DNA of 32,000 nt from Acinetobacter wanghuae. GTDB lineage: Bacteria > Pseudomonadota > Gammaproteobacteria > Pseudomonadales > Moraxellaceae. Numbering within the stretch: the stretch's first letter is position 1; every line of letters starts with the position of its first letter. A program made the translations under genes and the position numbers. Under the pieces are notes generated by a model. That model did not search any database, was not told the origin of the DNA, and saw only the letters and a program-made list of their open reading frames with translations. Location of the stretch: assembly GCF_009557235.1 (NCBI RefSeq), contig NZ_CP045650.1, positions 2,670,001 to 2,702,000 of the forward strand, written 5' to 3'. Shown here in pieces: positions 1,378-21,895 of the stretch.

Positions 1378-2013
1378 ATGACGGAAATAAAACTTAATAA
1401 TAAAATTCCGCGAATATCTAAACGATTATTTGACATTATTTTTTCAATTTCATGTTTAATTATATTATCCCCATTACTTGTTACTTTGTATTTCATTGTT
1501 ATTCGGGATGGCGGACCCGCTTTTTACGGACATGAACGAGTAGGACGTAACGGTAAGAAGTTTAAATGCCTTAAATTTAGATCTATGTCTGTCAACTCCC
1601 AAGAACTACTAAATGAATTACTTATGAATAATCCTTCCGCTCGCAAAGAGTGGGAAACGACCTTTAAATTAAAACAAGACCCGCGTGTTACACCTATTGG
1701 AGAATTCTTAAGAAAAACAAGCTTGGATGAGTTGCCGCAACTAGTTAATATACTTAAAGGCGAAATGAGTACTGTAGGCCCTAGACCTGTTACGCAGCAA
1801 GAATTACCCATGTATGACCAATTCATTCACTATTATTTGAGCAGTAAACCAGGTTTAACAGGCCTTTGGCAAGTTAGCGGACGTAGTGATGTTGATTATA
1901 ATACACGTGTCAAATTAGATACAGATTATGTAATGTATTGGTCATTTATTAAAGACATTATTATTATTTTAAAAACGGTAAAAGTTGTATTTAAAAAAGA
2001 TGGGGCTTATTAA
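1378..2013 (+). CDS. Initiating polyprenyl-phosphate hexose-1-phosphate transferase, ExoY/WbaP-C-terminal type
   Basis: The ORF track starts at the TTG at 1354. The ATG at 1378 is preferred because of GGTGAGG 9 nt upstream. It has one N-terminal membrane helix (FDIIFSISCLIILSPLLVTLYF). The bacterial sugar-transferase motifs are present: KFKCLKFRSM, the NPxxxxEWxxxxKLxxDPRVTP insertion, SLDELPQL, GPRP and PGLTGLWQVSGR. That insertion is typical of hexose-1-P transferases (WbaP/WcaJ/ExoY/CpsE). Confidence 0.85.
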   Translation: MTEIKLNNKIPRISKRLFDIIFSISCLIILSPLLVTLYFIVIRDGGPAFYGHERVGRNGKKFKCLKFRSMSVNSQELLNELLMNNPSARKEWETTFKLKQDPRVTPIGEFLRKTSLDELPQLVNILKGEMSTVGPRPVTQQELPMYDQFIHYYLSSKPGLTGLWQVSGRSDVDYNTRVKLDTDYVMYWSFIKDIIIILKTVKVVFKKDGAY

Positions 2014-2044
2014 TGATTAGTAAATTTAATTTTGAGGTAGAAAA

Positions 2045-3472
2045 ATGATTCCAGTAATATTATCAGGAGGTTCGGGTACACGTCTTTGGCCTTTATCACG
2101 TTCAAGCTACCCTAAGCAATTTCTGCCTATAACAGAAGATAAAACCCTATTTCAACTCACATTAGATCGAATCTCAAATTTAAATCAATCTCTTATTAAT
2201 TTTCAAAACCCTATCATTGTTACCAATGAGGGACACCGCTTTATTGTAGCTGAACAACTTCGCCAGCAACAGGTGAATGCCAAAATTCTACTTGAACCTG
2301 TTGCTAGAAATACAGCACCAGCCATAGCAGCCGCTGCTGAACTTGCTCTATCTTATGGTGAAGACCCTGTATTACTTATTCTTGCTGCTGACCACATCAT
2401 TGAAGATCAAGAAGCTTTCAACAAGTCTGTTGAAGTCGGGCTCCAAGCTGCTGAGGCTGGTCAATTGGTAACATTTGGTGTTGTACCCACCTCTCCTGAA
2501 ACTGGTTATGGTTATATTAAAGCTCAAGATATAAATACATTCGAACTAGAAATTCAAACATATGCCATTGAGAAATTTATTGAAAAACCAAATTTAGCAA
2601 CAGCACAGGAGTATATTAAGGAAGGGTCATATCTCTGGAATAGCGGGATGTTTATGTTTAAAGCATCTGTATATCTAGAGGAATTAGAAAAATATAATCC
2701 AGCTATTGTTGAAAATGCAAAAGCTTCTATTCAATATAGTAAAAATGATTTAGATTTCGTCCGGTTGGATAAAGAGCATTTCGAACAATCACCAGAGGAT
2801 TCAATTGACTATGCCGTTATGGAGCATACTACTAAGGCTGTAGTTGTGCCATTATCTGCTCATTGGAATGATGTTGGTGCTTGGAAAAGTGTGTGGGAAG
2901 TAAGCAATAAAGATATAAATGGTAATGTACTACGTGGTGATACCATAGCTGAAGGCACAACTAATTCACTTGTATATGCAGAACATCGTTTAGTGAGTGT
3001 TTTAGGTCTTGAAAATGTAGTGGTGATCGAAACTTCAGATGCAGTTTTGGTTGCCAATAAAAATAAAGTTCAAGACATAAAAAAAATCGTTGAAAAGTTA
3101 AAACAATCTAAACGCCCTGAGGTAGATACTCATCGTAAAATGTACCGCCCATGGGGAAGTTATGATTCGATTGACAGTGGCAGCCGTTATCAGGTGAAGT
3201 GCATTGTGGTGAATCCAGGACAAAAGCTTTCTTTACAAATGCATCATCACCGTGCAGAACATTGGATTGTGGTGAATGGCACAGCCAAAGTGCGTAAAGG
3301 TAATGAAACGGTTCTACTCACTGAAAACCAGTCTATTTATATTCCTCTCGGTGAAATCCATGCCTTAGAAAACCCAGGTAAAGTACCACTCGAACTCATT
3401 GAAGTTCAATCAGGTTCTTACCTAGATGAAGATGATATTATTCGTTTCGAAGACGTATACGGTCGAGTATAA
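2045..3472 (+). CDS. manC: Bifunctional mannose-1-phosphate guanylyltransferase / mannose-6-phosphate isomerase (type II PMI-GMP)
   Basis: 475 aa. N-terminal nucleotidyltransferase motif VILSGGSGTRLWPLSR. C-terminal cupin with QMHHHRAEHWIVVNGTA and GEIHALENPG. GAGG ribosome-binding site upstream. Confidence 0.92.
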   Translation: MIPVILSGGSGTRLWPLSRSSYPKQFLPITEDKTLFQLTLDRISNLNQSLINFQNPIIVTNEGHRFIVAEQLRQQQVNAKILLEPVARNTAPAIAAAAELALSYGEDPVLLILAADHIIEDQEAFNKSVEVGLQAAEAGQLVTFGVVPTSPETGYGYIKAQDINTFELEIQTYAIEKFIEKPNLATAQEYIKEGSYLWNSGMFMFKASVYLEELEKYNPAIVENAKASIQYSKNDLDFVRLDKEHFEQSPEDSIDYAVMEHTTKAVVVPLSAHWNDVGAWKSVWEVSNKDINGNVLRGDTIAEGTTNSLVYAEHRLVSVLGLENVVVIETSDAVLVANKNKVQDIKKIVEKLKQSKRPEVDTHRKMYRPWGSYDSIDSGSRYQVKCIVVNPGQKLSLQMHHHRAEHWIVVNGTAKVRKGNETVLLTENQSIYIPLGEIHALENPGKVPLELIEVQSGSYLDEDDIIRFEDVYGRV

Positions 3473-3487
3473 TTTAGTTTTATATAA

Positions 3488-3511
3488 TCTGGGCAAGTCA
3501 TCTTGCTCAGA
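3488..3511 (+). other. Intercistronic stem-loop after manC
   Basis: TCTGGGCAAG-TCAT-CTTGCTCAGA forms a 10-bp stem (one G-U) with a 4-nt loop, 16 nt after the manC stop. There is no clear T-tract, so it may be an attenuator or stabiliser rather than a full terminator. Confidence 0.35.
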
Positions 3512-3537
3512 TTAAAAGTATTGGAATATAGATATAT

Positions 3538-4686
3538 ATGTCTAAGGTAATAAATACAGCAGTAGTAGCAGATTGGCTTGTTACCTATGCCGGAGCAGAA
3601 CGCGTACTTTGCGAAATGCTTAAGACAGTGCCTCATGCTGATCTTTTTGCTGTTATTGATTTTATAGATGAAACTACTAGAAAGAAATACTTTCAAGGTA
3701 AGCTCGCACAAACGACATTTATCCAACATCTTCCATTTGCACAAAAAAAGTATCGTAATTATTTACCGTTTATGCCGTATGCAATTGAGCAATTAGATGT
3801 ATCAAAATATGATGTTGTTATATCCAGTAGCCATGCAGTAGCAAAAGGAATTTTAACTGGACCAGATCAATTACATATTAGCTATGTTCACTCTCCTATT
3901 CGCTATGCTTGGGATTTACAACATCAATATTTAAATGAACTAAATCTAAATAAAGGACTCAAAAGCTTAATTATACGTTGGCTATTACATAAAATTAGAA
4001 TGTGGGATTATAGAACATCTAATGGTGTAGATCATTTTGTTGCGAATTCAAAATTTATCGCAAGAAGAATTAAAAAAGTATACGGCCGTGAAGCAGATAT
4101 AATTTATCCGCCTGTCAATACTGATATTTTCCAACCAAAAGATAATAAGGATAATTATTATGTGACTGCTTCACGTATGGTACCCTACAAAAAAATCGAC
4201 CTAATTGTCGAATCTTTTAGTCATATGAAAGATAAAAAACTTGTTGTTATTGGTGATGGTCCTGATATGGAAAAAATTAAGGCCAAAGCCTCAAGTAATA
4301 TTGAAATTTTAGGATATCAAAACAATGATGTAATGCAAGAATATATGCGCAATGCAAAAGCATTTGTATTTGCTGCAGAAGAAGATTTTGGTATTACACC
4401 TGTTGAAGCACAAGCATGCGGTACTCCAATTATCGCATTCGGCAAAGGTGGTGCCTTAGAAACTGTAGTTGGAAAAAATGCTGAAAATCCAACTGGAGTT
4501 TTTTTTGAAGAACAAAAAATCGATTCTCTTATAAAAGCGATTAGTTCATTTGAAAGAGAACAGCACATATATACACCTGAAAACTGTAGATTAAATGCCT
4601 TAAAATTTTCTACGGATAGATTCAATCAAGAATTTTCAAAATACATTGAAGACAAATGGAATTTATTCCAAATATCTAATAATTAG
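3538..4686 (+). CDS. GT4-family glycosyltransferase, WbaZ-like (putative mannosyltransferase)
   Basis: 382 aa. N-terminal DWLVTYAGAERV and HSPIRYAWD motifs, which I associate with WbaZ-type mannosyltransferases. C-terminal EDFGITPVEAQACGTPIIA (EX7E region). Adjacent to manC. Mannose specificity is inferred. Confidence 0.75.
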   Translation: MSKVINTAVVADWLVTYAGAERVLCEMLKTVPHADLFAVIDFIDETTRKKYFQGKLAQTTFIQHLPFAQKKYRNYLPFMPYAIEQLDVSKYDVVISSSHAVAKGILTGPDQLHISYVHSPIRYAWDLQHQYLNELNLNKGLKSLIIRWLLHKIRMWDYRTSNGVDHFVANSKFIARRIKKVYGREADIIYPPVNTDIFQPKDNKDNYYVTASRMVPYKKIDLIVESFSHMKDKKLVVIGDGPDMEKIKAKASSNIEILGYQNNDVMQEYMRNAKAFVFAAEEDFGITPVEAQACGTPIIAFGKGGALETVVGKNAENPTGVFFEEQKIDSLIKAISSFEREQHIYTPENCRLNALKFSTDRFNQEFSKYIEDKWNLFQISNN

Positions 4687-4738
4687 TTTAAAATCCATCG
4701 ATATTTTTCGCTTACCATCTTCTATTCAAAGGTTTATT

Positions 4739-5752
4739 ATGAATAAACAAAATCGTAAAATAATTTTTGACACAAGATGGTTTGGTGAACATGGAATTGG
4801 TAGGTTTGCAAAAGAAGTATATGACAAAGATATATTTAAGCCTATTAAATTAACAGGAAATCCTATCAGTATATTTGACGTATTAAAACTGACATTATAT
4901 TTATTATTTCATCATGATTTTTTCTACTCCCCAGGCTTTAATGCACCTTTCTTTTTTCTAAAGCGAACAGCAATTACTCTGCATGATTTGAACCATATAG
5001 ATCTGGATGCAAATAGTTCTTTTTTAAAAAGGTTATACTATAATTTAGTTTTAAAGCGTGCTTGTAAAAAATGTGCATTCATTGTGACTGTCTCAGAATT
5101 TTCTAAAAAAAGGATTGTAGAATGGAGTGGAATAAATCCAGATAAAGTAAAAGTCGTTTATAATGGAGTCTCTGATGCATTTCATGCAAACGTAAAACCC
5201 TATGAACCAGGTTTTCCATACATTTTTATCGTTGGAAATCGAAAACTTCATAAAAATGAAGATAGAGCTATGCGTGCATTTGCACAAGCAGATATAGATA
5301 AGGATATTAAATTAGTATTTTCGGGTGATCCATCAGATCAATTACTACAAACTGCAAATGAATTAAGTATTACCGAACGTATTATTTTTTTAGGTCGATT
5401 AACTGAAGAGCAACTTGCTAGCACATATAAGGGGGCTATTTGTTTGTTATTCCCATCTCTATATGAAGGATTCGGACTACCAGTTATAGAATCTATGGCA
5501 TGTGGAACACCTGTAATTACTTCAAATACAACTTCACTAGTTGAAGTCGCTGGTCAAGCTACTGAATTAATAGATCCCAAAAACGTAAATAATATATCAC
5601 AAAGTATTAATAGGCTATACTCTGACAAACAATTACAACAAAAAAATATCAACTTAGGATATATTAATATAAAAAAATATTGTTGGCAGTCTAGTAAAAA
5701 AAGATTAAAGAAAATTTTGCAAGAAATATTTATTAATAGAATGGAAAGATGA
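4739..5752 (+). CDS. GT4-family glycosyltransferase (putative mannosyltransferase)
   Basis: The track ORF starts at 4646 and overlaps the previous gene. The ATG at 4739 (MNKQNRKIIFDTRWFGEHGIGRF) with AAGG upstream is preferred. DxRWxxxxGIGR N-terminus and EGFGLPVIESMACGTPVITS EX7E motif. Confidence 0.8.
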   Translation: MNKQNRKIIFDTRWFGEHGIGRFAKEVYDKDIFKPIKLTGNPISIFDVLKLTLYLLFHHDFFYSPGFNAPFFFLKRTAITLHDLNHIDLDANSSFLKRLYYNLVLKRACKKCAFIVTVSEFSKKRIVEWSGINPDKVKVVYNGVSDAFHANVKPYEPGFPYIFIVGNRKLHKNEDRAMRAFAQADIDKDIKLVFSGDPSDQLLQTANELSITERIIFLGRLTEEQLASTYKGAICLLFPSLYEGFGLPVIESMACGTPVITSNTTSLVEVAGQATELIDPKNVNNISQSINRLYSDKQLQQKNINLGYINIKKYCWQSSKKRLKKILQEIFINRMER

Positions 5753-5784
5753 AGTAAATAATTTTAAAATTAACATCTTTCCAT
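5741..5784. terminator. Bidirectional hairpin between convergent genes
   Basis: Perfect 11-bp arms ATGGAAAGATG (5741-5751) and CATCTTTCCAT (5774-5784) enclose a second perfect palindrome, TAATTTTAAAATTA (5759-5772). Both sides are T-rich. It sits exactly where the plus-strand block (ends 5752) meets the minus-strand operon (ends 5792). Confidence 0.6.
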
Positions 5785-5791
5785 TTTAGCT

Positions 5792-6928
5792 TTATATTAT
5801 ATCAATCCATTTTTTCATTATATAATCTTTTCTGAAGCTATTTAAGTTAAAACTAAATTGAATAATATTATTTTTATAATCTGAAATTATTTTTACCAAT
5901 CCACTAATATCATCAAAAATAAAGTCTTCATTATCAATTAATAGTTCTGGCATTCCACCAACACGTTTAACAGCGACTGGAACATTTCTACTTAAAGCTT
6001 CAATTACCACTCTACCGAATGGCTCTTCCCATTTAGAAGGCACTATAAGCAAATCTATACCATCGATAAATTCAAATGCATTTTGAAGACCAGAAAAGAA
6101 AAAATTAGACTGAATATTAGAATAATTTTGATGCAAATACTTAATATATTCACTATCTCCTTTGCCAGCTATAAATAATAAGTTATTTTTATCATTTAAT
6201 TTTTGCATACTCTCAAGAATCATATCAATGCCTTTAGTAGGATGAATTCTACCTAAATAACCGATTTTAAATTCATTAGAAGGACTCTTTTCTCTCTCAA
6301 CTTCTTCATCAAAACATATATTATGAATAACAGAATTTTGAGCATTTTTAAAATACCCAAACTGTAAATGCTTATTTAGAATAAAATTGCTAATTCCAAC
6401 CACATGATCAACATAATAAGAATTAAATTTTTTGTTTAAGGTAATTAAAGAACAATTTAAACATCTATTTAGACAATTAGAATTATTTTTAAACATATTA
6501 GCATTAGTACACAGTAATGAATAACTTCTTAGAATATGAATTACTTTACAATTATTTTTCTTTGAAATTTTCCACAATATACTAGATATATCTTCAATAG
6601 TACTACTAACTACAGTGTCAGGATTATATTTTTTAATGATTTCATCAAGTATTGAAGCTATAAATATATTATTTGCATCAATGGTATGCCAAATAATCTT
6701 TTTTATAAGCGAATTACTAGACTCATAAGACCAATAAATATTTTTAAATTTCAATCTTTCAACGAAAACATTATTTATAACTTCCTTACAGTAAGATGAA
6801 CTAATTGTTATAACTTTAACTTCATATCCCAGACTTACTAAGTTTTCTGCTAGGGCCTGAGTAGATATTTCCCCGCCACCACTAATATGGGGATAATAAC
6901 TTCTGCAAAATATAAGAACTTTTTTCAT
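5792..6928 (-). CDS. GT4-family glycosyltransferase
   Basis: 378 aa. N-terminal YYPHISGGGEIS. C-terminal EEPFGRVVIEALSRNVPVAV (EX7E-like). Contains an unusual C-x11-C-x3-C-x2-C cluster. Confidence 0.8.
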   Translation of the reverse strand: MKKVLIFCRSYYPHISGGGEISTQALAENLVSLGYEVKVITISSSYCKEVINNVFVERLKFKNIYWSYESSNSLIKKIIWHTIDANNIFIASILDEIIKKYNPDTVVSSTIEDISSILWKISKKNNCKVIHILRSYSLLCTNANMFKNNSNCLNRCLNCSLITLNKKFNSYYVDHVVGISNFILNKHLQFGYFKNAQNSVIHNICFDEEVEREKSPSNEFKIGYLGRIHPTKGIDMILESMQKLNDKNNLLFIAGKGDSEYIKYLHQNYSNIQSNFFFSGLQNAFEFIDGIDLLIVPSKWEEPFGRVVIEALSRNVPVAVKRVGGMPELLIDNEDFIFDDISGLVKIISDYKNNIIQFSFNLNSFRKDYIMKKWIDII

Positions 6929-6943
6929 AATTAACCTTAAAAA

Positions 6944-8149
6944 TTAATTTGGCTTCATCTTACCATTTAGATAAAGAATATTGATAAGAAGTGAAAAACC
7001 CATGACAGTTGGAAAAAAATATATAGTTAAAAGAGTGTAAGAGGACAATGAAAAAATTATATACAAAAAAATAATTTTTAACTTATTTTTATTTTCTATA
7101 AATAAGGTTATAATAAAAATATAAGTTAAACTAATTAAGTATAATAGAAAACCCAAATTACCAAAAGCAGTCTTTATATATAAAAATTGATTCTCCACAT
7201 AACTACTAGCACCTACTCCAAAAATATAATACATATCGTCTGTCTTAATATAAGAGTTTAATAATTCATATTGACTCTCTCTCATAGATACTGTATCAAT
7301 TGCAACATTATTACTATCAATAAAAGTATATAATTTACTTAAAAAAACTTTACTCATATCTATGTAAAGATCATAATAATTTTGAATTATAATAAAAACA
7401 GAAGTAATCAATAAAATTGATAAATTTAAAACTATATATAACGTTCTTTTAAAATTTAAAAAAGTACCGAATATAATCATAAGCAATAAAGAGACATACA
7501 TAGTTCCAGTATTTTGAGATAACATTCCCAATAAAATACCGTATAAACAAAAATGAAACATTATAATTTTTTTCTTAGCCAAAAATATTAAACAAAATAA
7601 AGACAAAATAAAGACTTGACCATCCATTGTAGGATACCCTACTCCAAAACGACCATAATCTTTATATACCTCATTAAAGAATGGAAGAGGAAAAAAATAA
7701 AGTGGCAACGTTACATAACCATACAATGAGGACAAAACAACAAATATATTCACTATTTTTTTCTGAAGTAAATCATTACCTTTTAATAGTGCATATGTAG
7801 CCAAAAAACAAAATGGAAAAATAAAATGTTTATAATAAATACTAAATTTATTACCAAATTCTTGTTCAACAAAATAAAAATCAGAAAAATTTAAGAATAT
7901 AGTAATTGGCCATAAACAAAGAATAAAAAATGAGAAAAGGATCAAAGGAATAAATTTTGATAAATATTTTTTATCAATTCTTCTTCTAAATATAAACCCT
8001 AAAATTAATATTAAAAGAAGAGAAATTTCTCTAATTAAACTTAAATAAGGAGAAAAAATTAAATTATTTCTCACACCATCAAAAACTATAAAAAAAATAA
8101 CAACAAAAAAAAGTGTTGCTAAAAAATTATCTCTTTTTAAAACATACAT
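6944..8149 (-). CDS. wzy: Oligosaccharide repeat-unit polymerase (Wzy / O-antigen-ligase-like polytopic membrane protein)
   Basis: 401 aa. About 10 hydrophobic segments, extremely AT-rich (10/60 G+C at 7021-7080), with no soluble-domain motifs. The position is typical of wzy. A WaaL/PglL-like ligase cannot be excluded by eye. Confidence 0.7.
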   Translation of the reverse strand: MYVLKRDNFLATLFFVVIFFIVFDGVRNNLIFSPYLSLIREISLLLILILGFIFRRRIDKKYLSKFIPLILFSFFILCLWPITIFLNFSDFYFVEQEFGNKFSIYYKHFIFPFCFLATYALLKGNDLLQKKIVNIFVVLSSLYGYVTLPLYFFPLPFFNEVYKDYGRFGVGYPTMDGQVFILSLFCLIFLAKKKIIMFHFCLYGILLGMLSQNTGTMYVSLLLMIIFGTFLNFKRTLYIVLNLSILLITSVFIIIQNYYDLYIDMSKVFLSKLYTFIDSNNVAIDTVSMRESQYELLNSYIKTDDMYYIFGVGASSYVENQFLYIKTAFGNLGFLLYLISLTYIFIITLFIENKNKLKIIFLYIIFSLSSYTLLTIYFFPTVMGFSLLINILYLNGKMKPN

Positions 8150-11736: not shown

Positions 11737-11745
11737 AACAATATC

Positions 11746-14841: not shown

Positions 14842-15504
14842 TTATTGCTGTGAAGTCGTGACAATCCGCGCAGGATTACCCACCACTGTTGCGCCCGCAG
14901 GGACACTTTTGGTGACCACGGCGCCCATGCCGATAATCGCGCCTTTGCCAATCACTAAAGGCTGATCGGAGGTACCCTGCTTAATCATGGCACCTGCGCC
15001 AATATAGGCATGATCATGAATATGAATATTGCCGTTGCATTTTACGCCTGGTGCGAAAGTAACGAAATCCCCAATCACACAATCATGCTCAACATAGCTA
15101 TATAAATTGGCATGGAAGCATTTGCCAATTCTAATATTGGAGGTGATGGTGACAAATGGACTTAAGGCTGAACCTTCCGCGATGTGTACTTCATCCATGA
15201 AAATAACGTTATCGGCAGAGATTGACCAAAGCCGAATACCATCTGCTTCTAAACGCTGGGCAATTTTTTCGCGTACACGACTATTGGCTATCGCAATTTG
15301 CACGTATTTTGTCGATGCAGATTCATTTAAAAATGCCTTATAGTTCATGGCACGATGACCGTTTACCACACTAATTTCTGTTAAAGCATCATCAATAAAG
15401 ACAATTTCAGATTGATCTTGTTCACGCGCCAATTGCTGACGTGCCACAGGCATCAGACTACGTCCACAACCTGAAGCACCATAAATTGCATAGAGTGTTG
15501 TCAT
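14842..15504 (-). CDS. UDP-4-amino-sugar N-acetyltransferase (PglD/NeuD/VioB family)
   Basis: 220 aa. N-terminal Rossmann-like IYGASGCGR followed by C-terminal left-handed beta-helix hexapeptide repeats (IGAGAMI, IGKGAIIGMGAVV). Confidence 0.85.
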   Translation of the reverse strand: MTTLYAIYGASGCGRSLMPVARQQLAREQDQSEIVFIDDALTEISVVNGHRAMNYKAFLNESASTKYVQIAIANSRVREKIAQRLEADGIRLWSISADNVIFMDEVHIAEGSALSPFVTITSNIRIGKCFHANLYSYVEHDCVIGDFVTFAPGVKCNGNIHIHDHAYIGAGAMIKQGTSDQPLVIGKGAIIGMGAVVTKSVPAGATVVGNPARIVTTSQQ

Positions 15505-16106
15505 TATTTTTGTTCCGGTGTACCGGTAAATTTCGTCATGGTTGCTTCGCCTTCGGCACTGATGTCATCTTTGGCAATGACTTTTTTTATAGTTTTCAGC
15601 ATGATTTTAAAGTCGAGCCATAGCGATTGGTTTTCAACATACCATGTATCGAGTTCGAATTTCTTTTCCCATGAAATCGCATTGCGCCCGTTCACTTGTG
15701 CATAACCGGTGATGCCCGGACGCACATTATGCCGTTTGGCTTGTTGCTCATTATATAAAGGCAAATATTCCATCAGTAAGGGACGTGGACCAACGATGCT
15801 CATATTACCCTTTATCACATTCCACAGTTCAGGCATTTCATCGAGACTGGTTGCTCGAAGTATTTTTCCAAATGGGGTGAGGCGTTCACTGTCCGGTAAT
15901 GGATTGCCCTCAGCATCAAGCGCATCTTTCATGGTACGGAACTTAATCATTTTAAAAGGCTTGCCGTGTAAACCCGGACGCACCTGACGAAACAGTACTG
16001 GCGAACCGAGATTCTTTTTCACTTTATGAGCCACAATCAAATACACCGGAGACAGCAAAATTAAAGCCGTCGATGCAATGGTGATATCTAAAATGCGTTT
16101 GATCAT
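15504..16106 (-). CDS. itrA: Initiating undecaprenyl-phosphate sugar-1-phosphate transferase, short PglC/WeeH (ItrA1) type
   Basis: 200 aa. Single N-terminal helix, then FKMIKFRTM, SLDEMPELWNV, GPRP and PGITGYAQVNGRN. It lacks the EW...DPR insertion seen in the 1378-2013 enzyme. Located beside the bacillosamine-type gene set. Confidence 0.88.
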   Translation of the reverse strand: MIKRILDITIASTALILLSPVYLIVAHKVKKNLGSPVLFRQVRPGLHGKPFKMIKFRTMKDALDAEGNPLPDSERLTPFGKILRATSLDEMPELWNVIKGNMSIVGPRPLLMEYLPLYNEQQAKRHNVRPGITGYAQVNGRNAISWEKKFELDTWYVENQSLWLDFKIMLKTIKKVIAKDDISAEGEATMTKFTGTPEQK

Positions 16107-17245
16107 GCCAAGATTCCCATTTCACCAAGCATATATTTGTTCACCTGATGCACATCATATTTATTTAAGGCAATTTCACGGGAACGCTGTCCCATCAACT
16201 CAATGAGTTTTGGATCTTCAATAAAATATTGCATGCTTTGCACCAAATCATCGACTGATTTTACCCCGACTAAATAGCCGTTTAAACCATGCGATACCGT
16301 TTCACGACAACCCGGTGCATCGGTGGTAATCACCGCTCGACCCATTGCCATGGCTTCTAACACAGTACGTGGCGTACCTTCACGATAAGATGGCAACACA
16401 TAGACTGAGCTTTCCGCAATGGCAGGACGCACATCACTGAGTTTACCCCAATATTTCAGACGACCATCAGCAATCCACTCATCAAGTTCAGCTTGGGCAA
16501 TCGCAGATGGATTATCATCAATCCAACCCACTAAATGAAATTCTGCTTCAGGATATTTAGCTTTAATGATGCGTGCCGATTCAGCATATTCACGTACGCC
16601 TTTATCACCGAGTAATCGAGCTATCAGCAAGAATGATGCTTTGACCTGCCCTTGTGCATTTTTCGGTAAGGGCATGACATCAAAATCTTGCACATTTACG
16701 CCTGACCCATTCACCACTACAGTGGGTTTATTGGCTTCGAGCAAGTGCATATCTTGGAACAGTTTTAAATCATCAGGATTTTGGAAAAAGACTTTGTCGC
16801 TATGTTTTAAGGCTTGGGCATATAAGCCATGCACCATTTTTTGGAACAGACTGCGCTTGCCCAATTCCACATTTTGAAAGGCATAACCAAGACCGGTAAT
16901 TAACGCAAAACGATGCGGGACTTTGGCAAGCCATGATGCGAGCATGCCGTAAATCACCGGTTTAATCGTATAAGACAATACATAATCTGGCTGAATATGG
17001 CGAATCTGCTGATACAGATTTTTAAGGAGTTTTAAATCCGCCAATGGATTGGTGCCAGTGCGTTGCATTGGAATTTCATGCAAATGATAGCCAAGCGCTT
17101 CAAGCTTTTGCTGTTCTTCGGGAAAGCTTGCAAACTCAGGTGCCATGATATGAATTTCATAGCCATGAGCAGCAATGGCTTCTAATAATTTGCCACGAAA
17201 ATTCAGCACCGACGGCAAAAAACTACTGATCATTAAAAATTTCAT
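16103..17245 (-). CDS. GT4-family glycosyltransferase, PglA-like
   Basis: The ATG at 17245 forms an ATGA overlap with the upstream stop (the track start at 17260 is a GTG). N-terminal MKFLMISSFLPSVLNFRGKLLEAIAAHGYEI resembles PglA-type enzymes acting on Und-PP-diNAcBac. C-terminal REGTPRTVLEAMAMGRAVITTD. Confidence 0.8.
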   Translation of the reverse strand: MKFLMISSFLPSVLNFRGKLLEAIAAHGYEIHIMAPEFASFPEEQQKLEALGYHLHEIPMQRTGTNPLADLKLLKNLYQQIRHIQPDYVLSYTIKPVIYGMLASWLAKVPHRFALITGLGYAFQNVELGKRSLFQKMVHGLYAQALKHSDKVFFQNPDDLKLFQDMHLLEANKPTVVVNGSGVNVQDFDVMPLPKNAQGQVKASFLLIARLLGDKGVREYAESARIIKAKYPEAEFHLVGWIDDNPSAIAQAELDEWIADGRLKYWGKLSDVRPAIAESSVYVLPSYREGTPRTVLEAMAMGRAVITTDAPGCRETVSHGLNGYLVGVKSVDDLVQSMQYFIEDPKLIELMGQRSREIALNKYDVHQVNKYMLGEMGILA

Positions 17246-18336
17246 GCCTGTTGGCTCCACACCTGCATATATTGACGGCTGACGGTTGCAATACTGAAAT
17301 TTTGCTCAACACGCTCACGCGTTGCCTGTTTTAAGGTTTGTTTTTCTGCCTCGGTTTTTTGTGCATATTCTAAAATGGCCTCTGCCAAGGCTTGCGCATT
17401 GCGTGGCGGAACAATACGGCCTAAATCCTGCACAATGTATTTGGCATCGCCAACATCGGTACTGATACAGGGTAAACCCGATGCCATGGCTTCCACCAAT
17501 ACATTCGGAAAACCTTCGGTGATTGAAGTCATTAAGAAGGCATCAATGGATTGATAAAAAGCAGGCATATCTGAGATTTGATCAAGCAAATGGACTTTTT
17601 GAGGATCTAACTGATACTGCTCAAATAAGGCTTTAACATCTGGGTTTTGTAAACTTGCGCCACCACCCGCAATTTTAAAGACGATGTTTTCATCTTTCAG
17701 CAAACCCATCGTTTCAAACAAATACGGATAGCCTTTGGCATGTCGATAATTACCAGCAAACCCAATCACGGTTGGTTTATTCACTTGTGGATTGGGTTGA
17801 AATTTATCGAGAAAGACACCATTGGCAATTACATATTGATGGGTATTTTGAAAGCCAAAATCAGTATGTTGCTGTTTAGAAGAATGTGCACAATAAATAA
17901 TAGCAGTCGGTTGTTTGGATAAAACCTTACTTAAACCGAGTGCAATTTTGGTACTGATCGATTCATCTTTTGGTGATGCAAGTGAGTGATGAATTCCCCA
18001 CACTACATTCGGTTTTTGGGCTAAACCGATGACACTGAGACTGGTCAATACATTGGCATGGTACATCCAACATTGCACAGTTTTCGGTTGTAATTGTTTG
18101 AGTAAACTACGCAATTTTTGAATCGTACTCAGCGTATTTAAACCATTCCACCCTAAGGCATAATGTGACTGACAACGATCAAGCGTACTTTGATATACCT
18201 CTGAGGTTTTCATCAAAGCAATAATGACATGCTGATATTGATTTTCAGTATATTGAATCAGGCGTGCCAACATCATCTCGGCACCGCCGACGCCTGCAAA
18301 GTTGGTGATGACATGTACCATTAACGGTTTATTCAC
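17242..18336 (-). CDS. GT4-family glycosyltransferase
   Basis: 364 aa. GVGGAEMML N-terminal motif and TEGFPNVLVEAMASGLPCISTDVG EX7E motif. The GTG start forms a GTGA overlap with the upstream gene. An alternative ATG lies at 18321. Confidence 0.85.
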   Translation of the reverse strand: MNKPLMVHVITNFAGVGGAEMMLARLIQYTENQYQHVIIALMKTSEVYQSTLDRCQSHYALGWNGLNTLSTIQKLRSLLKQLQPKTVQCWMYHANVLTSLSVIGLAQKPNVVWGIHHSLASPKDESISTKIALGLSKVLSKQPTAIIYCAHSSKQQHTDFGFQNTHQYVIANGVFLDKFQPNPQVNKPTVIGFAGNYRHAKGYPYLFETMGLLKDENIVFKIAGGGASLQNPDVKALFEQYQLDPQKVHLLDQISDMPAFYQSIDAFLMTSITEGFPNVLVEAMASGLPCISTDVGDAKYIVQDLGRIVPPRNAQALAEAILEYAQKTEAEKQTLKQATRERVEQNFSIATVSRQYMQVWSQQA

Positions 18337-19451
18337 GCCTTTGACTCCAACAAATCTCGGTACTGACGCACCACGGTATCTTTATGGAATTGCAAACAAT
18401 GCGCTTTAAAGCTTTCCGCATCAAACTCGACATAATCATGATACAGCGCCTTATGCATAGCATGACTTAAGGCTTTTTGATCATCACATGGTACCAAAAG
18501 CCCAAACTGACCCTCTGCCAAAATTTCACGCGGACCACTTGGGCAATCGGTACTGACTACTTTGACTTTGGATGCCAATGCTTGAATCAGCACCCCCGGC
18601 AAACCTTCCCAATTCGAACTTAAAACAAACAGCGAAGCATATTTAAAATAGGCATATGGATTTGGATCAAAGCCCGGTAAATCCACCACGTCGGTTAAAT
18701 TCAAATCTTTAATTAAGGCTTCAAATTCAGCACGTAACTCACCTTCACCCAAAATAATCAGACGGGTTTCAGGATGCATCTGATGCAATTCATAGAAAGC
18801 ACGAATCAATAATCCAAAATTCTTGGCTTCGGTTAAACGCCCTACTGCCAACACCACTTGATGATCTTGACTAAAGAATCGATGCTGTACCTGTGCTTTG
18901 AGTTTTTGCAAATAACGGCTGTCAATCACAGGGTTATAAATGGTGCTCAGGTTATCTTCAGCGTAATGGTAGTACTGTCTAAAATCTTCTAATACACCAT
19001 TGGATACACACACTACTTGATCGGCACTGCGATAAGTCCAATTCACCAAACGGTTAAAGACAAACTTTTTCAGTCCCCTCAGTTTCATATTTTTCGAGGG
19101 CGTCGATACTTCACGCAAAATCAGTTTGCTGTGACTTTTTGCCAAACGTTTTGAAATGGCACAGACGATATTGCTGTGACTTTGCGTGGCAATCACTGCC
19201 TCATAAGGCACGGCTTTAAGCAGTTGTTTTAATGGCGTGATCGCTCGAAATACACGACCGCAATTGAGGTCAATCAGCTGAATTTTAGAGTCGACTTCAG
19301 GCAATAATTTGGCTTTTTCTCCGCTTAAATCACAGACCACCACATCGACATCACGGCCTTGCTGTACCAAGTTATTTGCCAATTGGATCACGGTACGCTC
19401 CGCACCGCCACCGCCTAAAGTTGGCAAGAAAAACATGACTTTATTCAGCAT
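18333..19451 (-). CDS. GT4-family glycosyltransferase
   Basis: 372 aa with LGGGGAERTVIQLAN and WEGLPGVLIQALASKVKVVSTD motifs. Confidence 0.85.
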   Translation of the reverse strand: MLNKVMFFLPTLGGGGAERTVIQLANNLVQQGRDVDVVVCDLSGEKAKLLPEVDSKIQLIDLNCGRVFRAITPLKQLLKAVPYEAVIATQSHSNIVCAISKRLAKSHSKLILREVSTPSKNMKLRGLKKFVFNRLVNWTYRSADQVVCVSNGVLEDFRQYYHYAEDNLSTIYNPVIDSRYLQKLKAQVQHRFFSQDHQVVLAVGRLTEAKNFGLLIRAFYELHQMHPETRLIILGEGELRAEFEALIKDLNLTDVVDLPGFDPNPYAYFKYASLFVLSSNWEGLPGVLIQALASKVKVVSTDCPSGPREILAEGQFGLLVPCDDQKALSHAMHKALYHDYVEFDAESFKAHCLQFHKDTVVRQYRDLLESKA

Positions 19452-19480
19452 AGAATAACCTAAAATGTGGGGAGAATGAG

Positions 19481-20032
19481 TTAAGAGGATTTTTGCTGTT
19501 GCACTTGCATGGCACGTTCAACACGCTGTTGATAATCGGTGATCCCGACCAAGTCACTATCACTGGCACAAGTGTTTTGAATTTTGGCTTGATAATCGGC
19601 AAAGTTTGAGACTACTTTGGCAGGCACACCAATTGCTACGGCGTTATCGGGAATATCTTTAGTCACCACCGAACCTGCACCAATCACCACATTGGAGCCG
19701 ATGCTTACACCCGGCATAATAATGCTATTTACACCAATAAAGACATGTGAGCCGACCTGAATCGAGGCAAAGCGTTGATAACGTTTTCCTTGCGCATCTT
19801 TGACCAAACAGGTACTACCATCGTGGGTAATAAACTTCACGCCCGAAGTGACCGTAACATGATCACCAATAGAGACTAAAAACGGTTCTGAGCCCCAATT
19901 TTTAATATAAATTCGGCAGTTTTCACCCACTTTCACCCCCTTTTTACGTGCATATGCCACACTGCCTTTAGCCATAAAATAAGCCAAATCAAACAGCTGT
20001 CGAAAAGCAGAAACAATAAATGCCATATGCAT
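19481..20032 (-). CDS. Hexapeptide-repeat (LbH) acyl/acetyltransferase
   Basis: 183 aa. Repeats VGSHVFIGVNSIIMPGVSIGSNVVIGAGSVV then P..AVAIGVPAKV. The start may be the ATG at 20026, which has better AGG spacing. Confidence 0.8.
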   Translation of the reverse strand: MHMAFIVSAFRQLFDLAYFMAKGSVAYARKKGVKVGENCRIYIKNWGSEPFLVSIGDHVTVTSGVKFITHDGSTCLVKDAQGKRYQRFASIQVGSHVFIGVNSIIMPGVSIGSNVVIGAGSVVTKDIPDNAVAIGVPAKVVSNFADYQAKIQNTCASDSDLVGITDYQQRVERAMQVQQQKSS

Positions 20033-20129
20033 GACCTATGTCAGGTGTCAAAAGAGGGAAAATCACTGAATATTTTACGCTGAAAATGCACTTTAGGATA
20101 TCAATGCCAAAGTCAGCATGATGACCTGA

Positions 20130-20741
20130 TTATAGGTCTTTGATTTTCTTAACAGGACTACCGACATATACACCTGCATCATCAAGCGGTTTAGACACTA
20201 AACTACAAGCGCCAATGACGCTGTTGCTTGGAATGGTGACACCATCTAAAACTGTCACACGTGCACCCAGCCAAATATTTTCACCGAGGTTAACCCCTAG
20301 TTTGGTAATCGCATCTTTGACCAAAACATCAGGCTCACCAAACTTATGATTACTCGCAATAATCATACTTTGCGTACCAATACGGGTGTTGTCACCAATC
20401 GTCACACCACCACAGCCATTGATATACGATTTGGAATTAATACTGACATCTTTACCAATCACCACCTTGCCACCAAAGCATTTGATATAACAGTTTTCAC
20501 CAATAAAACTGTTGTCAGCAATTTCTAGCACTGCGCCATTTTCAACGATCAGACTCACATAATCACCAATATAGACATTGCTACCGATCTTCACTTTTCC
20601 ACTGATATCCACGGTACAGCCTTTGCCGAAATAGCGAAACTTAGTGCCAAAAGTCACATTATAAAATTGCTGACGACATTGTGCAGTGAACCAATTCATC
20701 AGTTTTAATAGTTTAAAAAACATCAGTTTTTGTTTCTCCAC
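20130..20741 (-). CDS. Hexapeptide-repeat (LbH) acyl/acetyltransferase
   Basis: 203 aa with long LbH repeats (IGSNVYIGDYVSL, IGENCYI, IGKDVSI, IGDNTRIG, LGARVTVLDGVTIPSNSVIGACSLV). The track start is the GTG at 20741 (19-nt overlap with wzx). The ATG at 20723 gives a TGATG 1-nt overlap and is equally plausible. Confidence 0.8.
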   Translation of the reverse strand: MEKQKLMFFKLLKLMNWFTAQCRQQFYNVTFGTKFRYFGKGCTVDISGKVKIGSNVYIGDYVSLIVENGAVLEIADNSFIGENCYIKCFGGKVVIGKDVSINSKSYINGCGGVTIGDNTRIGTQSMIIASNHKFGEPDVLVKDAITKLGVNLGENIWLGARVTVLDGVTIPSNSVIGACSLVSKPLDDAGVYVGSPVKKIKDL

Positions 20742-21895
20742 ACCACATATAAAATGGCAAAGTTATAGATAATCAATGCGATAGGCACCGCCAAGAGCAT
20801 ATAAATTTTATCGTCAAATAAAATATATAAACCTGCAAATAATGCAAACTTAATGATCAGTTCAACGATTTGCAGTTTAAACAACACTTGGCTGTTGCGC
20901 TTAGCAATTAAAAAAGCCGAGCTAGGTGGATTAAAGAAAATTGCCCAATAGCCCAAAGCCAAAATTTGGAAATAGCTTGAGATCCCGACCCATTCATGAC
21001 CAAAAATCCATAAATACAGGGATTCAGGCAAGATAAAGAAAATGGCAAATAAAGGCAGTGAAACGAGACTGAGTAATACACTCGCCTTCAAGGCACTTTG
21101 ATTGGATTCTGTGGTTTTAAATTTGCGGATAAAGAACTGACGTAAGGTTTGCGAAATCAGATTAATCGGCACACGCAAAGTCCGCTCGACAATGGCGTAG
21201 AAACCCATCGCCTGCACGCCGACAAAATGCGACACCACATAGTACGGCAAGTTATGCGAAAAACTATTCAGCAAGGCATGGGGTGTATTGGCATAAATGA
21301 AATCTTTGTAGTTTTTAAATGCCTGCCAACTGACTTGATAGAGTTGATGCTTTAGCAAATAGACTAACACCGCGACAATCATGATGATCGAGCTGATGTT
21401 ATAACTGTTTACTAAACTAATTTGCATCACAAGCGGTAAAGACAGTTGTACTGCCACCACAATTAAACTTCTAAAAATATTTAAACCTGCACAAAAATAT
21501 TCTTTGTGTGCGGAGAATTGATAATTATATAGGCTTTGAATCAGGGTATTAGCCAATACACCTGTGGCAACTGCCCCTGCCATTTCAACGTTCAAAATAA
21601 CGCTGATGACAATGCCACTGATGATTGCAATGACCGTTGAGAACACCGCCCCTTCAAAGATCAGGCTTTTTTTATCCTGCTCCTCGGCGACCAATAAAGC
21701 TTGATCCAGACGTAAGTTCGCAACCGTCGATAAAACACTGACAATGGCTAAGGCAATCCCATACGCACCAAAGTCGGCTACAGAATACAGGCGCGTTAAA
21801 ACAGGAAGTGCGATAAATGTCATTATCGCACCTGCCAGTAAACTTAAGGTAATCAGTCCAATCGACTGATATTTTGCGAACAGTTTCGCAATCAT
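20723..21895 (-). CDS. wzx: Polysaccharide flippase (MOP/PST family)
   Basis: 390 aa polytopic membrane protein with a PST-like N-terminus (LTRLYSVADFGAYGIALAIVSVL). It sits right after gna-gne2, as in many K loci. Confidence 0.8.
   Translation of the reverse strand: MIAKLFAKYQSIGLITLSLLAGAIMTFIALPVLTRLYSVADFGAYGIALAIVSVLSTVANLRLDQALLVAEEQDKKSLIFEGAVFSTVIAIISGIVISVILNVEMAGAVATGVLANTLIQSLYNYQFSAHKEYFCAGLNIFRSLIVVAVQLSLPLVMQISLVNSYNISSIIMIVAVLVYLLKHQLYQVSWQAFKNYKDFIYANTPHALLNSFSHNLPYYVVSHFVGVQAMGFYAIVERTLRVPINLISQTLRQFFIRKFKTTESNQSALKASVLLSLVSLPLFAIFFILPESLYLWIFGHEWVGISSYFQILALGYWAIFFNPPSSAFLIAKRNSQVLFKLQIVELIIKFALFAGLYILFDDKIYMLLAVPIALIIYNFAILYVVWRNKN

Follow-up and report, generated by a model that had tools for sequence, protein, structure and literature searches.

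A bipartite capsule locus of Acinetobacter wanghuae that may direct the synthesis of two separate undecaprenyl-diphosphate-linked glycans

Introduction

In Enterobacteriaceae, a colanic acid or group 1 cps cluster lies beside an O-antigen cluster, giving two Wzx-dependent pathways with different initiating transferases; each cluster has a separate Wzy, and the products go to different destinations (Wza-Wzc export or WaaL ligation). Within Acinetobacter, the closest described relatives of the locus analyzed here are the A. baumannii K locus (KL1, for instance) and the wee (emulsan) cluster of A. venetianus RAG-1, which resemble it in the placement of fkpA and of wza-wzb-wzc divergent from gna, in the galU-ugd-gpi far end, and in the kinds of genes present, namely, gna/gne2, wzx, atr, gtr, itrA1, the qhb/wee acetyltransferase and aminotransferase, and gdr (PMC3628348). 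Their variable region is single, with a wzy and only one wzx; a second, redundant itr is present in some of them. The A. baumannii types KL19, KL24 and KL39 are also similar in that region 2 includes itr, gtr and wzx but no wzy (PMC9676051); these are strain-specific capsule types without a second cassette. Outside capsule loci, the Burkholderia OGC, which is conserved genus-wide (PMC12645811), and the pgl systems of Neisseria and Campylobacter encode an initiating transferase, a flippase and a small number of glycosyltransferases but lack a polymerase, and are conserved across species; the two pgl systems employ diNAcBac chemistry via PglC, PglA, PglD, PglE and PglF homologues.

Results

Two initiating transferases and two flippases in one K locus

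The 32,000-nucleotide stretch of DNA analyzed here (the window) holds the K locus of Acinetobacter wanghuae. Two initiating transferases of the Bac_transf family, both full length, and two MOP/Wzx flippases are encoded there together with one wza-wzb-wzc set (Table 1). The locus consists of module A, which runs from gna, its first gene, divergent from wza, to gdr (11746-24220), and module B (1378-11742). The GC content is 42.2% in module A, 29.9% in module B and 42-44% in the core flank; the composition of module A is core-genome-like, and this gene set is ancient and conserved clade-wide. No more than 9 bp separate gdr from wzxB, and no terminator intervenes; module A is probably co-transcribed with the minus-strand genes of module B. 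At the galU end, galU is followed by ugd, gpi and an epimerase gene in locus L001.

Table 1 Features of the A. wanghuae K locus (positions in the window)
Feature	Position	Strand	Assignment
galU	322..1197	-	PF00483; first gene of the conserved galU-ugd-gpi-gne1 K locus end
itrB	1378..2013	+	PF02397 218.6 bits, profile 1-179/179; short WbaP-type phosphoglycosyl transferase, 211 aa, module B
manC	2045..3472	+	PF00483, PF22640, PF01050; bifunctional GDP-mannose pyrophosphorylase and PMI
gtrB1	3538..4686	+	PF00534, PF13439; GT4 glycosyltransferase
gtrB2	4736..5752	+	PF00534; GT4 glycosyltransferase, 338 aa (public gene call, L001)
gtrB3	5792..6928	-	PF00534; GT4 glycosyltransferase
wzyB	6944..8149	-	sole Wzy-like polymerase candidate in the locus, in low-GC module B
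ugd	8160..9323	-	PF03721, PF00984, PF03720; UDP-glucose 6-dehydrogenase, module B
orf289	9326..10195	-	PF00534 E 5e-4, under threshold; weak GT1-like candidate
wzxB	10288..11742 (482 aa, 10288-11736)	-	PF13440 248 bits, NF007773 246 bits; WzxC-like MOP flippase, module B
gdr	11746..13599	-	PF02719 407 bits; PglF/WeeK-like UDP-GlcNAc 4,6-dehydratase, last gene of module A
aminotransferase	13650..14825	-	PF01041 320.8 bits; DegT-family 4-aminotransferase (qhbB/PglE-like)
N-acetyltransferase	14842..15504	-	TIGR03570 175 bits, above cut-off; WeeI/PglD-like, predicted to complete UDP-diNAcBac
itrA1	15504..16106	-	PF02397 218.6 bits, profile 1-178/179; PglC-type small phosphoglycosyl transferase, module A
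gtrA3	16103..17245	-	PglA-like GT4; predicted second step, on Und-PP-diNAcBac
gtrA2	17242..18336	-	PF00534, PF13692; GT4 glycosyltransferase
gtrA1	18333..19451	-	PF00534; GT4 glycosyltransferase, dimorphic across species
atrA2	19481..20032	-	PF14602, PF00132; hexapeptide acetyltransferase
atrA1	20130..20723	-	PF00132; hexapeptide acetyltransferase, 197 aa per relatives' gene calls (L030-L035)
wzxA	20723..21895	-	PF13440 64.8 bits; short MOP flippase, 390 aa, module A
gne2	21906..22928	-	NF011728 540 bits, full length; TviC/WbpP-like UDP-GlcNAcA 4-epimerase
gna	22943..24220	-	NF011729 702.6 bits (cut-off 592); TviB-like UDP-GlcNAc 6-dehydrogenase
wza-wzb-wzc	24488..28276	+	PF02563, PF22461; PF01451; PF02706, PF13807, PF13614; single export and tyrosine-kinase set

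Both transferases retain the SLDE(L/M)P catalytic motif. Residues 8-211 of ItrB match the C-terminal catalytic domain of Salmonella WbaP (8t53 residues 325-528, E 8e-83), and the protein is 64-68% identical to WbaP fragments of Klebsiella and E. coli; its TIGR03022 score of 324.7 bits falls under the cut-off of 403 because the N-terminal domains are missing. Acinetobacter homologues of 208-213 aa are known, and homologues of the same length occupy the same position in other species. ItrA1 matches Campylobacter PglC over residues 2-195 (8g1n, E 1e-69), and its orthologues in 21 loci are 84-96% identical to the window copy, with a dN/dS of 0.046. Both flippases score above the PF13440 gathering threshold and cover the whole profile. 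WzxB has about 12 hydrophobic segments; homologues of WzxA are exactly 390 aa long in 120 of the 120 best matches listed and 92-100% identical across species (dN/dS 0.066 at dS 0.9). Thus, the observations in a preliminary description of this DNA hold: two intact transferases of different classes, two intact flippases, one export set, and the division of sugar-nucleotide genes into gna/gne2 plus the diNAcBac genes in module A and manC plus ugd in module B. The profile searches it called for show full-length PF02397 and PF13440 domains, and none of the itr and wzx genes looks like a decayed remnant: both transferases keep their catalytic motifs, the length of WzxA is constant, and itrA1 and wzxA are under purifying selection. 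As to its premise that a KL type normally carries one itr and one wzx, A. baumannii KL types are documented to have 'at least one' itr, with ItrB2 redundant (bioRxiv 10.64898/2026.07.20.739706), so that a second itr is not by itself unprecedented.

A single candidate polymerase

The only polytopic proteins encoded in the locus are WzxA, WzxB and WzyB. In the profile search, WzyB itself had no Pfam match; it contains about 11 hydrophobic segments, and among its relatives (82 homologue clusters), 21 of the 55 that were aligned match PF04932 (Wzy_C). The best PDB fold match of its AF2 model (pLDDT 92.5) is the WaaL ligase 7tpg (E 1.8e-4, TM 0.53). R167, D176, R290 and E319 are invariant in the family, and no His is invariant among the aligned relatives. 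Judging from these sequence and model comparisons, the WzyB family appears to be allied to Wzy_C, with a predicted WaaL-like fold. The preliminary description was silent on wzy.

Module A is conserved across Acinetobacter

The gene order of module A recurs in 24 loci, which come from some 20 or more Acinetobacter species, including A. lwoffii, A. johnsonii, A. schindleri, A. indicus and A. towneri. Most module A proteins have a median identity of 86-92% to their window counterparts, compared with 72-79% for fkpA and 71-78% for wza-wzc. The dN/dS values of the module are 0.05-0.11 at dS 0.7-1.4; ratios this low at such dS indicate that its conservation reflects constraint rather than recent transfer, with strong purifying selection acting on the module. 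Orthologues of gdr are 81-96% identical (19 loci), and GtrA1 shows 65-71% identity in most loci, 89% in L006 and at least 90% in A. indicus members. The wza-wzb-wzc set is far less conserved than module A, with divergent allele groups at 55-66% and 72-80% identity and one wzc at 33%.

The enzymes of module A are Pgl-like, with homologues of PglC, PglA and WeeI/PglD. Residues 12-371 of GtrA3 (dN/dS 0.062) match Campylobacter PglA (8dqd, E 7e-40), and the N-acetyltransferase matches 7l7y (E 3e-95), 4m9c (E 2e-84) and Campylobacter PglD (3bss, E 2e-16). In 23 of the 24 copies of module A, no polytopic gene other than wzxA is present; module A almost never holds a wzy. In A. amyesii (L026), a 353-aa polytopic ORF, which could be a Wzy, is inserted inside the module.

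Module B is a mosaic, strain-variable cassette

Compared with A. schindleri (L031), WzxB is 85%, ManC 81%, GtrB1 73% and the orf289 product 60% identical, whereas the central glycosyltransferases and wzy differ; module B is mosaic and strain-variable. In every relative with sequence past gdr (YH12128, A. schindleri, A. towneri, A. variabilis, A. chengduensis and A. indicus), gdr leads into a different variable second region and not into galU. In NCu2D-2, the galU-side half contains a similar variable second region, with no flippase in the visible part. Each of these regions includes an EpsG or Wzy-like gene and, NCu2D-2 excepted, its own flippase; wherever the galU end is visible, a second Bac_transf gene adjoins galU. 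The doubling of itr and wzx is therefore explained by the junction of a conserved, wzy-less module A with an ordinary strain-variable capsule cassette. Far from being an oddity of A. wanghuae, as the preliminary description took it to be, this layout is the standard architecture in a large non-baumannii Acinetobacter clade; no description of it was found in the literature searched.

Discussion

With two initiating transferases and two flippases, each accompanied by glycosyltransferases of its own, the locus is expected to yield two different Und-PP-linked glycans, a claim of the preliminary description that genomics supports well, given the intact gene sets and the constraint on module A. Its first choice, two polymers sharing one export machine, is disfavored by the single Wzy-like polymerase and the lack of one in module A; its alternative, one capsule and one unpolymerized glycan, fits better. 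We put at about even chances the joint proposition that the bipartite locus encodes two separate glycans with the following fates: a Wzy-dependent capsule from module B, and from module A a conserved oligosaccharide, diNAcBac-initiated, O-acetylated and left unpolymerized, whose most likely role is that of donor in the O-glycosylation of proteins or pilin.

Module B would be a complete Wzx/Wzy capsule cassette, in which the short WbaP-type transferase would supply the first residue of the unit, probably a hexose-1-phosphate (of Gal, for example), three or four glycosyltransferases would lengthen the unit with GDP-Man (manC) and UDP-GlcA (ugd), WzxB would flip it, WzyB would polymerize it and Wza-Wzb-Wzc would export the polymer. 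In module A, gdr, the aminotransferase and the N-acetyltransferase would make UDP-diNAcBac, and gna and gne2 would make UDP-GlcNAcA and UDP-GalNAcA; the sugar identities for both modules are predictions from the gene content. The PglC-type ItrA1 would begin the unit, the PglA-like enzyme and two more GT4 enzymes would extend it to roughly a tetrasaccharide, the two hexapeptide acetyltransferases would decorate it, and the dedicated 390-aa flippase would move it to the periplasmic face. The absence of a polymerase from module A makes it most likely that the product stays a single oligosaccharide, which an O-oligosaccharyltransferase of the PglL or TfpM type encoded elsewhere may transfer en bloc to proteins or pilin. 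PglL is found in almost all A. variabilis genomes (PMC12904642), and TfpM in A. johnsonii, A. indicus, A. towneri and A. pseudolwoffii (PMC9829042). Against this reading, the field currently regards the O-glycans of Acinetobacter as K units (PMC12645811), and both KL1, with gna/gne2 and itrA1/qhb/gdr, and the RAG-1 wee cluster make polymerized capsule units (PMC3628348).

The module A unit might also be polymerized by a Wzy encoded outside the locus, so that a conserved common capsule or antigen and a variable capsule share Wza-Wzb-Wzc. We consider this less likely than not, though the most probable of the alternatives: KL19, KL24 and KL39, without wzy in the locus, are polymerized by a genomic-island Wzy (PMC9676051; bioRxiv 10.64898/2026.07.20.739706), the capsules of RAG-1 and KL1 contain the same sugars (PMC3628348), the place of module A, adjoining wza and divergent from it, is the classical capsule-gene position, and the possible Wzy ORF of A. 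amyesii lies, in that one species, within the module. Such a scheme requires a conserved unlinked wzy across 20 or more species, while polytopic genes besides wzxA are missing from nearly all copies of module A, and the divergence of the wza-wzb-wzc allele groups is more readily explained if these genes vary along with the variable capsule than if they go with an invariant module. It is improbable that the modules are interdependent, with A mainly feeding UDP-diNAcBac, UDP-GalNAcA and spare enzymes to the downstream cassette and the strain making a single glycan. The A. lwoffii F78 capsule does contain a QuiN4N (bacillosamine-type) derivative (PMC3726653), and module A passes into the minus-strand genes of module B almost without a gap; but precursor supply leaves unexplained three conserved glycosyltransferases, two acetyltransferases, a dedicated initiating transferase and flippase, and the low dN/dS, and module B of the window is already equipped with an initiating transferase, a flippase and a polymerase of its own.

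Slightly less probable still is transfer of the module A oligosaccharide to lipid A-core by a WaaL-type ligase, as a conserved one-unit LOS cap (semi-rough LPS). A Wzy-less, Wzx-dependent unit is what such a ligase would use, and WaaL homologues have been reported from two non-baumannii Acinetobacter genomes, close to the OC locus (PMC3628348); yet 50 genomes of A. variabilis yielded no WaaL homologue (PMC12904642), a species in which at least one genome has module A (L033), and the LPS of A. lwoffii F78 is reported to be rough (PMC3726653). That one itr/wzx pair is a non-functional recombination leftover, comparable to the redundant itrB2 of A. baumannii (bioRxiv 10.64898/2026.07.20.739706), is strongly disfavored and very improbable, considering the full-profile transferases with catalytic motifs kept, the length conservation in more than 100 WzxA homologues, the low dN/dS of itrA1 and wzxA at near-saturated dS, and the itrB homologues in other species.

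Compared with known systems, ItrB matches the WbaP catalytic domain end to end at about 60-65% identity, including the DE dyad, but it is 211 aa long, whereas the solved WbaP chains have 476-528 aa, and it lacks the N-terminal transmembrane and accessory domains, and its NCBIfam WbaP scores are under the cut-offs. The WzxC-like WzxB, the WbaP-like ItrB and the two pathways side by side recall the adjacent clusters of Enterobacteriaceae, except that the two-flippase A. wanghuae locus has one polymerase and one export set. Unlike OGC and pgl, module A lies inside a capsule locus and is probably transcribed together with capsule genes, uses uronic-acid sugars and Wzx instead of PglK, and has no linked OTase; its product is a putative donor for protein glycosylation. 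In contrast to KL19, KL24 and KL39, module A always occurs beside a cassette with its own Wzy. Finally, relative to KL1 and RAG-1, the KL1-like set of the window is devoid of wzy and near-invariant across species, and is followed by a complete variable cassette before galU.

Two initiating transferases and two flippases in one K locus

Proteins encoded in the window match entries from two A. wanghuae assemblies with full identity. The K locus lies in reverse orientation within the window and shows much of the frame that is characteristic of Acinetobacter: fkpA is located at one side, wza-wzb-wzc is divergent from gna, and the galU-ugd-gpi(-gne1)-pgm end is present, with galU followed by ugd, gpi and an epimerase in L001, the K locus from a second A. 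wanghuae assembly. The feature that is absent is a single variable region 2 with one wzx, one wzy and one (occasionally two) itr. The window locus consists of two regions, modules A and B, with two wzx, two itr and one Wzy-like gene. The GC content is 42.2% in module A, 42-44% in the core flank and 29.9% in module B. Both fkpA paralogues are kept in most relatives.

Features of the K locus and its flanks (window positions)
Feature	Position	Strand	Remarks
galU	322-1197	-	locus end
galU/itrB intergenic region	1198-1377		180 bp
itrB	1378-2013	+	211 aa; SLDELPQL motif; WbaP-type catalytic domain
plus-strand block (part of module B)	1378-5752	+	converges on the minus-strand block
minus-strand block, from gna downwards	24220-5792	-	
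wzyB	6944-8149		401-aa product
itrA1	15504-16106	-	200 aa; PF02397 positions 1-178/179; SLDEMPEL motif
gtrA1	18333-19451		
gna	22943-24220	-	divergent from wza-wzb-wzc
wza-wzb-wzc	24488-28276	+	divergent from gna
two tandem fkpA paralogues	28430-29872		FKBP_N + FKBP_C; 234 and 231 aa
dienelactone hydrolase	30015-30749		beyond the fkpA pair
HIT-family protein	30819-31178		beyond the dienelactone hydrolase

The preliminary description claimed two intact initiating transferases of different classes, and this claim holds: both Bac_transf proteins, one PglC-like and the other WbaP-like, span the whole PF02397 profile (218.6 bits each) and retain the SLDE(L/M)P catalytic motif. Residues 2-195 of ItrA1, the transferase of module A, align with Campylobacter PglC (8g1n, E 1e-69), and the hydropathy scan detects one hydrophobic segment (residues 8-26). 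ItrA1 has all the features of a small monotopic PGT of the PglC type, that is, ~200 aa, the full PF02397 domain, the Asp-Glu dyad and an N-terminal helix. Its predicted substrate is UDP-diNAcBac (QuiNAc4NAc), given that gdr and the genes for an aminotransferase and a WeeI-like acetyltransferase adjoin itrA1, and that itrA1 of A. baumannii always accompanies QuiNAc4NR genes. In ItrB, the transferase of module B, residues 8-211 align to residues 325-528 in the C-terminal catalytic domain of WbaP from Salmonella (8t53, E 8e-83), and the protein is 64-68% identical to WbaP fragments of Klebsiella and E. coli. The N-terminal four-helix membrane bundle and the accessory domain of WbaP (full length ~470-530 aa) are missing from ItrB, which accounts for NCBIfam scores below the WbaP cut-offs (TIGR03022, 324.7 bits vs 403; NF011751, 296.9 vs 907), only positions 249-456 of the WbaP model being covered. 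ItrB appears to work like the catalytic domain of WbaP, with its DE dyad, but is not a canonical WbaP.

The two flippases are likewise intact, as originally proposed. Both match the full PF13440 profile above the Pfam gathering score (GA 23), WzxB, which is WzxC/PRK10459-like, with 248 bits and ~12 hydrophobic segments, and WzxA with 64.8 bits and ~10 such segments in a crude hydropathy scan. Each of the two proteins thus combines a Polysacc_synt_3/Polysacc_synt domain with the polytopic character of Wzx/MOP flippases.

The sugar-nucleotide genes that had been assigned to each module were all recovered. Module A encodes a TviB-like gna (702.6 bits, above the cut-off), a TviC-like gne2 and a complete diNAcBac set, namely, gdr, a DegT aminotransferase and an N-acetyltransferase. 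The latter matches solved hexapeptide acetyltransferases (7l7y, E 3e-95; 4m9c, E 2e-84) and Campylobacter PglD (3bss, E 2e-16). Campylobacter PglA acts on Und-PP-diNAcBac, and the glycosyltransferase adjoining itrA1 is a full-length homologue of this enzyme (8dqd, E 7e-40). In module B, profile searches identified manC and ugd, along with three GT4 enzymes that match clearly and an ORF with weak similarity to GT1.

The gdr stop codon is separated from the wzxB start by at most 9 bp, and no terminator-like site lies between them. Judging from the size of this gap, module A and the minus-strand half of module B probably form one transcript; the promoter and terminator scan was uninformative, with 71 promoter-like sites vs 70.7 expected and 8 terminator-like sites vs 6.8 expected. 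The genes itrB-manC-gtrB1-gtrB2 are inverted relative to the remaining locus. Because galU and itrB diverge from their shared intergenic region, the galU-ugd-gpi operon must have its own promoter, with no read-through from region 2. The inverted itr arrangement is found also in Acinetobacter sp. NCu2D-2 and YH12128.

A single candidate polymerase, in module B

The number of polymerases was overlooked in the preliminary description: there is one Wzy-like gene, and it belongs to module B. According to the hydropathy scan, only three proteins encoded in the locus are polytopic, namely, WzxA, WzxB and WzyB. WzyB itself has no Pfam or NCBIfam match, even at E = 10. An exhaustive search yielded 82 clusters of homologues, and PF04932 (Wzy_C) is matched by 21 of the 55 aligned relatives. 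The only significant PDB match of the AlphaFold model (pLDDT 92.5) is the O-antigen ligase WaaL (7tpg, E 1.8e-4, TM 0.53). The residues that are invariant in the family are R167, D176, R290 and E319, and an invariant His is absent. This pattern of invariant Arg, Asp and Glu without His, together with the position of the gene among glycosyltransferases, favours a polymerase rather than a ligase or an oligosaccharyltransferase. An ortholog of wzyB is present in none of the fetched loci.

No hidden wzy was detected in module A by ORF and hydropathy checks. The genes of this module are tightly packed, with gaps of -4 to 97 bp, and the ORFs belong to soluble-enzyme families throughout, except for wzxA and the N-terminal helices of gdr.

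Conservation of module A across species

Also overlooked at first was that module A is not strain-specific: a scan of the genome collection, limited to one genome per species, with WzxA as the query returned 24 loci. The 120 best WzxA homologues listed each have a length of exactly 390 aa and are 92-100% identical; their source species include A. lanii, A. indicus, A. lwoffii, A. schindleri and A. johnsonii. The gene order in those of the 24 loci that are sufficiently long is gna-gne2-wzxA-atr-atr-gtr-gtr-gtr-itrA1-acetyltransferase-aminotransferase-gdr. Most proteins of module A have a median identity of 86-92% to those of the window, with lower values for gtrA1 (~68%) and atrA1 (81%); for the neighbours, the median is 72-79% (fkpA) and 71-78% (wza-wzc). 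Pairwise dN/dS within module A is 0.05-0.11 at dS of 0.7-1.4, so that the similarity is due to constraint over the long term rather than to a recent sweep. The 90% clusters of module A proteins carry generic names only ('glycosyltransferase', 'oligosaccharide flippase'), and contain neither KL nomenclature nor A. baumannii members.

The preliminary description allowed that one itr or wzx could be a decayed remnant. This is not what we found: all four proteins match full profiles, and for itrA1 and wzxA, the dN/dS values and the conserved lengths rule decay out.

Within the module, gtrA1 is dimorphic, being ~65-71% identical to the window gene in most species and 89% identical in one fetched locus (L006); the relatives from A. 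indicus and Acinetobacter sp. YH16032 share the 90% cluster of the window protein. The rest of module A stays 85-95% identical, and this looks like an allelic swap of a glycosyltransferase within a conserved module. A third hexapeptide acetyltransferase of ~180 aa, located between gtrA3 and itrA1, was read from the ORFs of five loci (L008, L009, L013, L021 and L023; for example, L009:15809-16357) and appears in the gene calls of four more (L030, L032, L033 and L035); the size of the gap between gtrA3 and itrA1 suggests nine further cases. It is missing from the window and six fetched loci. This presence-absence pattern suggests glycoform variation in the O-acetylation of the module A glycan.

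In the A. amyesii locus (L026:11761-12837), a very hydrophobic, AT-rich ORF of 353-359 aa, with no Pfam match, is inserted between atrA1 and atrA2. None of the other 23 loci has an insertion of this kind; the ORF may encode a Wzy that was acquired. In Acinetobacter sp. UBA3106 (L027:15556-17900), gna and gne2 occur a second time (90% and 88% identity) after a module A that ends at gtrA2; rearrangement or duplication could account for this variant, as could an artefact of MAG assembly. Across L007-L028, wza-wzb-wzc fall into two allele groups, 55-66% (A. johnsonii-like loci) and 72-80% identical to the window, and wzc of BSP-28 (L022:4402) is only 33% identical; the export genes are thus more variable than the adjoining genes of module A.

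A variable second region after gdr

In the relatives, galU never directly follows gdr. Where ~0.4-1 kb past gdr is visible, this stretch opens with a different wzx, with ugd or with a UDP-GlcNAc 2-epimerase; A. lwoffii SU1904 has a near-identical copy of the window wzxB in this position. Six further look-ups centred on gdr each revealed a full second region. This region comprises wzx, ugd, rmlBDAC, an EpsG-type wzy and glycosyltransferases in Acinetobacter sp. YH12128, where the overlapping locus L003 contains a WbaP-like itr divergent from galU; a mosaic relative of the window module B with a different wzy in A. schindleri; wzx, a pyruvyl transferase, EpsG, a glycerophosphotransferase and a 206-aa Bac_transf protein adjoining galU in A. 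towneri; wzx, EpsG and fnl-like genes in A. variabilis; mnaAB, an Amj-family protein, a 416-aa protein without a Pfam match and a 209-aa Bac_transf protein adjoining galU in A. chengduensis; and ugd, wzx, rmlBDAC and EpsG in A. indicus. The chromosome of Acinetobacter sp. NCu2D-2 encodes an orthologue of WzxA and also has a WbaP-like itr next to galU. Orthologues of the window module B genes are only sporadic among the fetched loci. The architecture, in which a conserved wzy-less module precedes a variable complete cassette, is thus general for the clade.

Several of these regions have peculiarities of their own. The variable region of A. chengduensis lacks a MOP/Wzx gene and encodes a 247-aa Amj-family protein (PF10997, alternative lipid II flippase; L034:15410-16153) next to the polytopic 416-aa protein; a flippase of the Amj type may have been recruited to a capsule pathway. 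The second-region wzx of A. variabilis (L033:11912-13162) is called as pieces of 55 and 344 aa, which may be due to a frameshift, and a stretch 81% identical to ugd in A. schindleri (L031:14398-15441) has no gene call and may be a pseudogene. In NCu2D-2 (L002:1-3287), Tn7-like tnsC, tnsD and tnsE lie immediately past pgm at the end of the K locus, a position matching that of the Tn7-family remnant that adjoins the A. variabilis K locus (PMC12904642).

Possible fates of the module A glycan

Module B contains a full Wzx/Wzy gene set and varies as capsule genes do; we therefore assign to it a complete Wzx/Wzy capsule pathway that would supply the polymer exported by Wza-Wzb-Wzc. The product assembled and flipped by module A would be an O-acetylated oligosaccharide with diNAcBac as its first sugar and with GalNAcA or GlcNAcA among the others, approximately a tetrasaccharide, given one initiating transferase and three glycosyltransferases. 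The module appears to hold nothing able to polymerise this unit, and its most economical fate would be en bloc transfer by an O-oligosaccharyltransferase. The clade has enzymes of this type: almost all A. variabilis genomes encode PglL (PMC12904642), and TfpM pilin OTases are known from A. johnsonii, A. indicus, A. towneri and A. pseudolwoffii (PMC9829042). The broader possibility is that a large non-baumannii clade (lwoffii, johnsonii, schindleri, indicus, towneri, wanghuae and others) keeps a conserved, wzy-less, diNAcBac-starting K-locus pathway for protein or pilin O-glycosylation, independent of the capsule; we put this forward tentatively, with rather less than an even chance of being correct.

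The strongest rival explanation is that module A units are polymerised by an unlinked Wzy, as happens with the K units of A. baumannii KL19, KL24 and KL39 (PMC9676051). The same sugars occur in polymers in KL1 and the RAG-1 emulsan cluster (PMC3628348), and the 353-aa polytopic ORF within module A of A. amyesii would fit such a route, but conservation is far lower in wza-wzb-wzc, which form divergent allele groups, than in module A. It is less likely that the module A glycan caps LOS via WaaL, which was not found in A. variabilis (PMC12904642). Pure precursor supply by a module that includes its own initiating transferase and flippase is less likely as well, and so is a dead remnant, considering the constraint on the module.

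If module A indeed serves O-glycosylation, the 'common pathway for capsule and O-glycosylation' of A. baumannii would fail for much of the genus, and the clade would possess a Burkholderia-like conserved O-glycan. The assumption that one K locus equals one K unit, for capsule and protein O-glycans alike, underlies typing, phage and depolymerase targeting, and glycoconjugate design. Should a second, invariant pathway be widespread, K-typing tools based on A. baumannii would mis-read other species and report an extra itr or wzx. A conserved glycan on the surface or on proteins would act as an antigen across species, and bioconjugation with PglL/TfpM would gain a defined substrate. A 2025 review, which derives Acinetobacter O-glycans from variable K units, calls the conservation of O-glycans and glycoproteomes outside A. 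baumannii unclear (PMC12645811); with specific genes and a glycan mass at hand, this question would become directly testable.

Relationship to known systems

All parts of the locus are members of known families. No description of the bipartite K-locus layout was found in the non-subscription literature searched; the paper on the K locus of A. variabilis includes gna/gne2 and qhb/gdr among its modules and does not flag a conserved wzy-less unit. The bipartite layout is a solid observation that is general and comes with a clear testable prediction.

The locus shares the common frame of the Acinetobacter K locus but departs from it in lacking a single variable region. Clusters for O-glycosylation of the OGC or pgl-like type combine an itr, glycosyltransferases and a flippase, without a polymerase, with conservation across species, and module A shares all these features. 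It would work like a pgl- or OGC-type cluster dedicated to one glycan, membership in this class being contingent on a link to an OTase.
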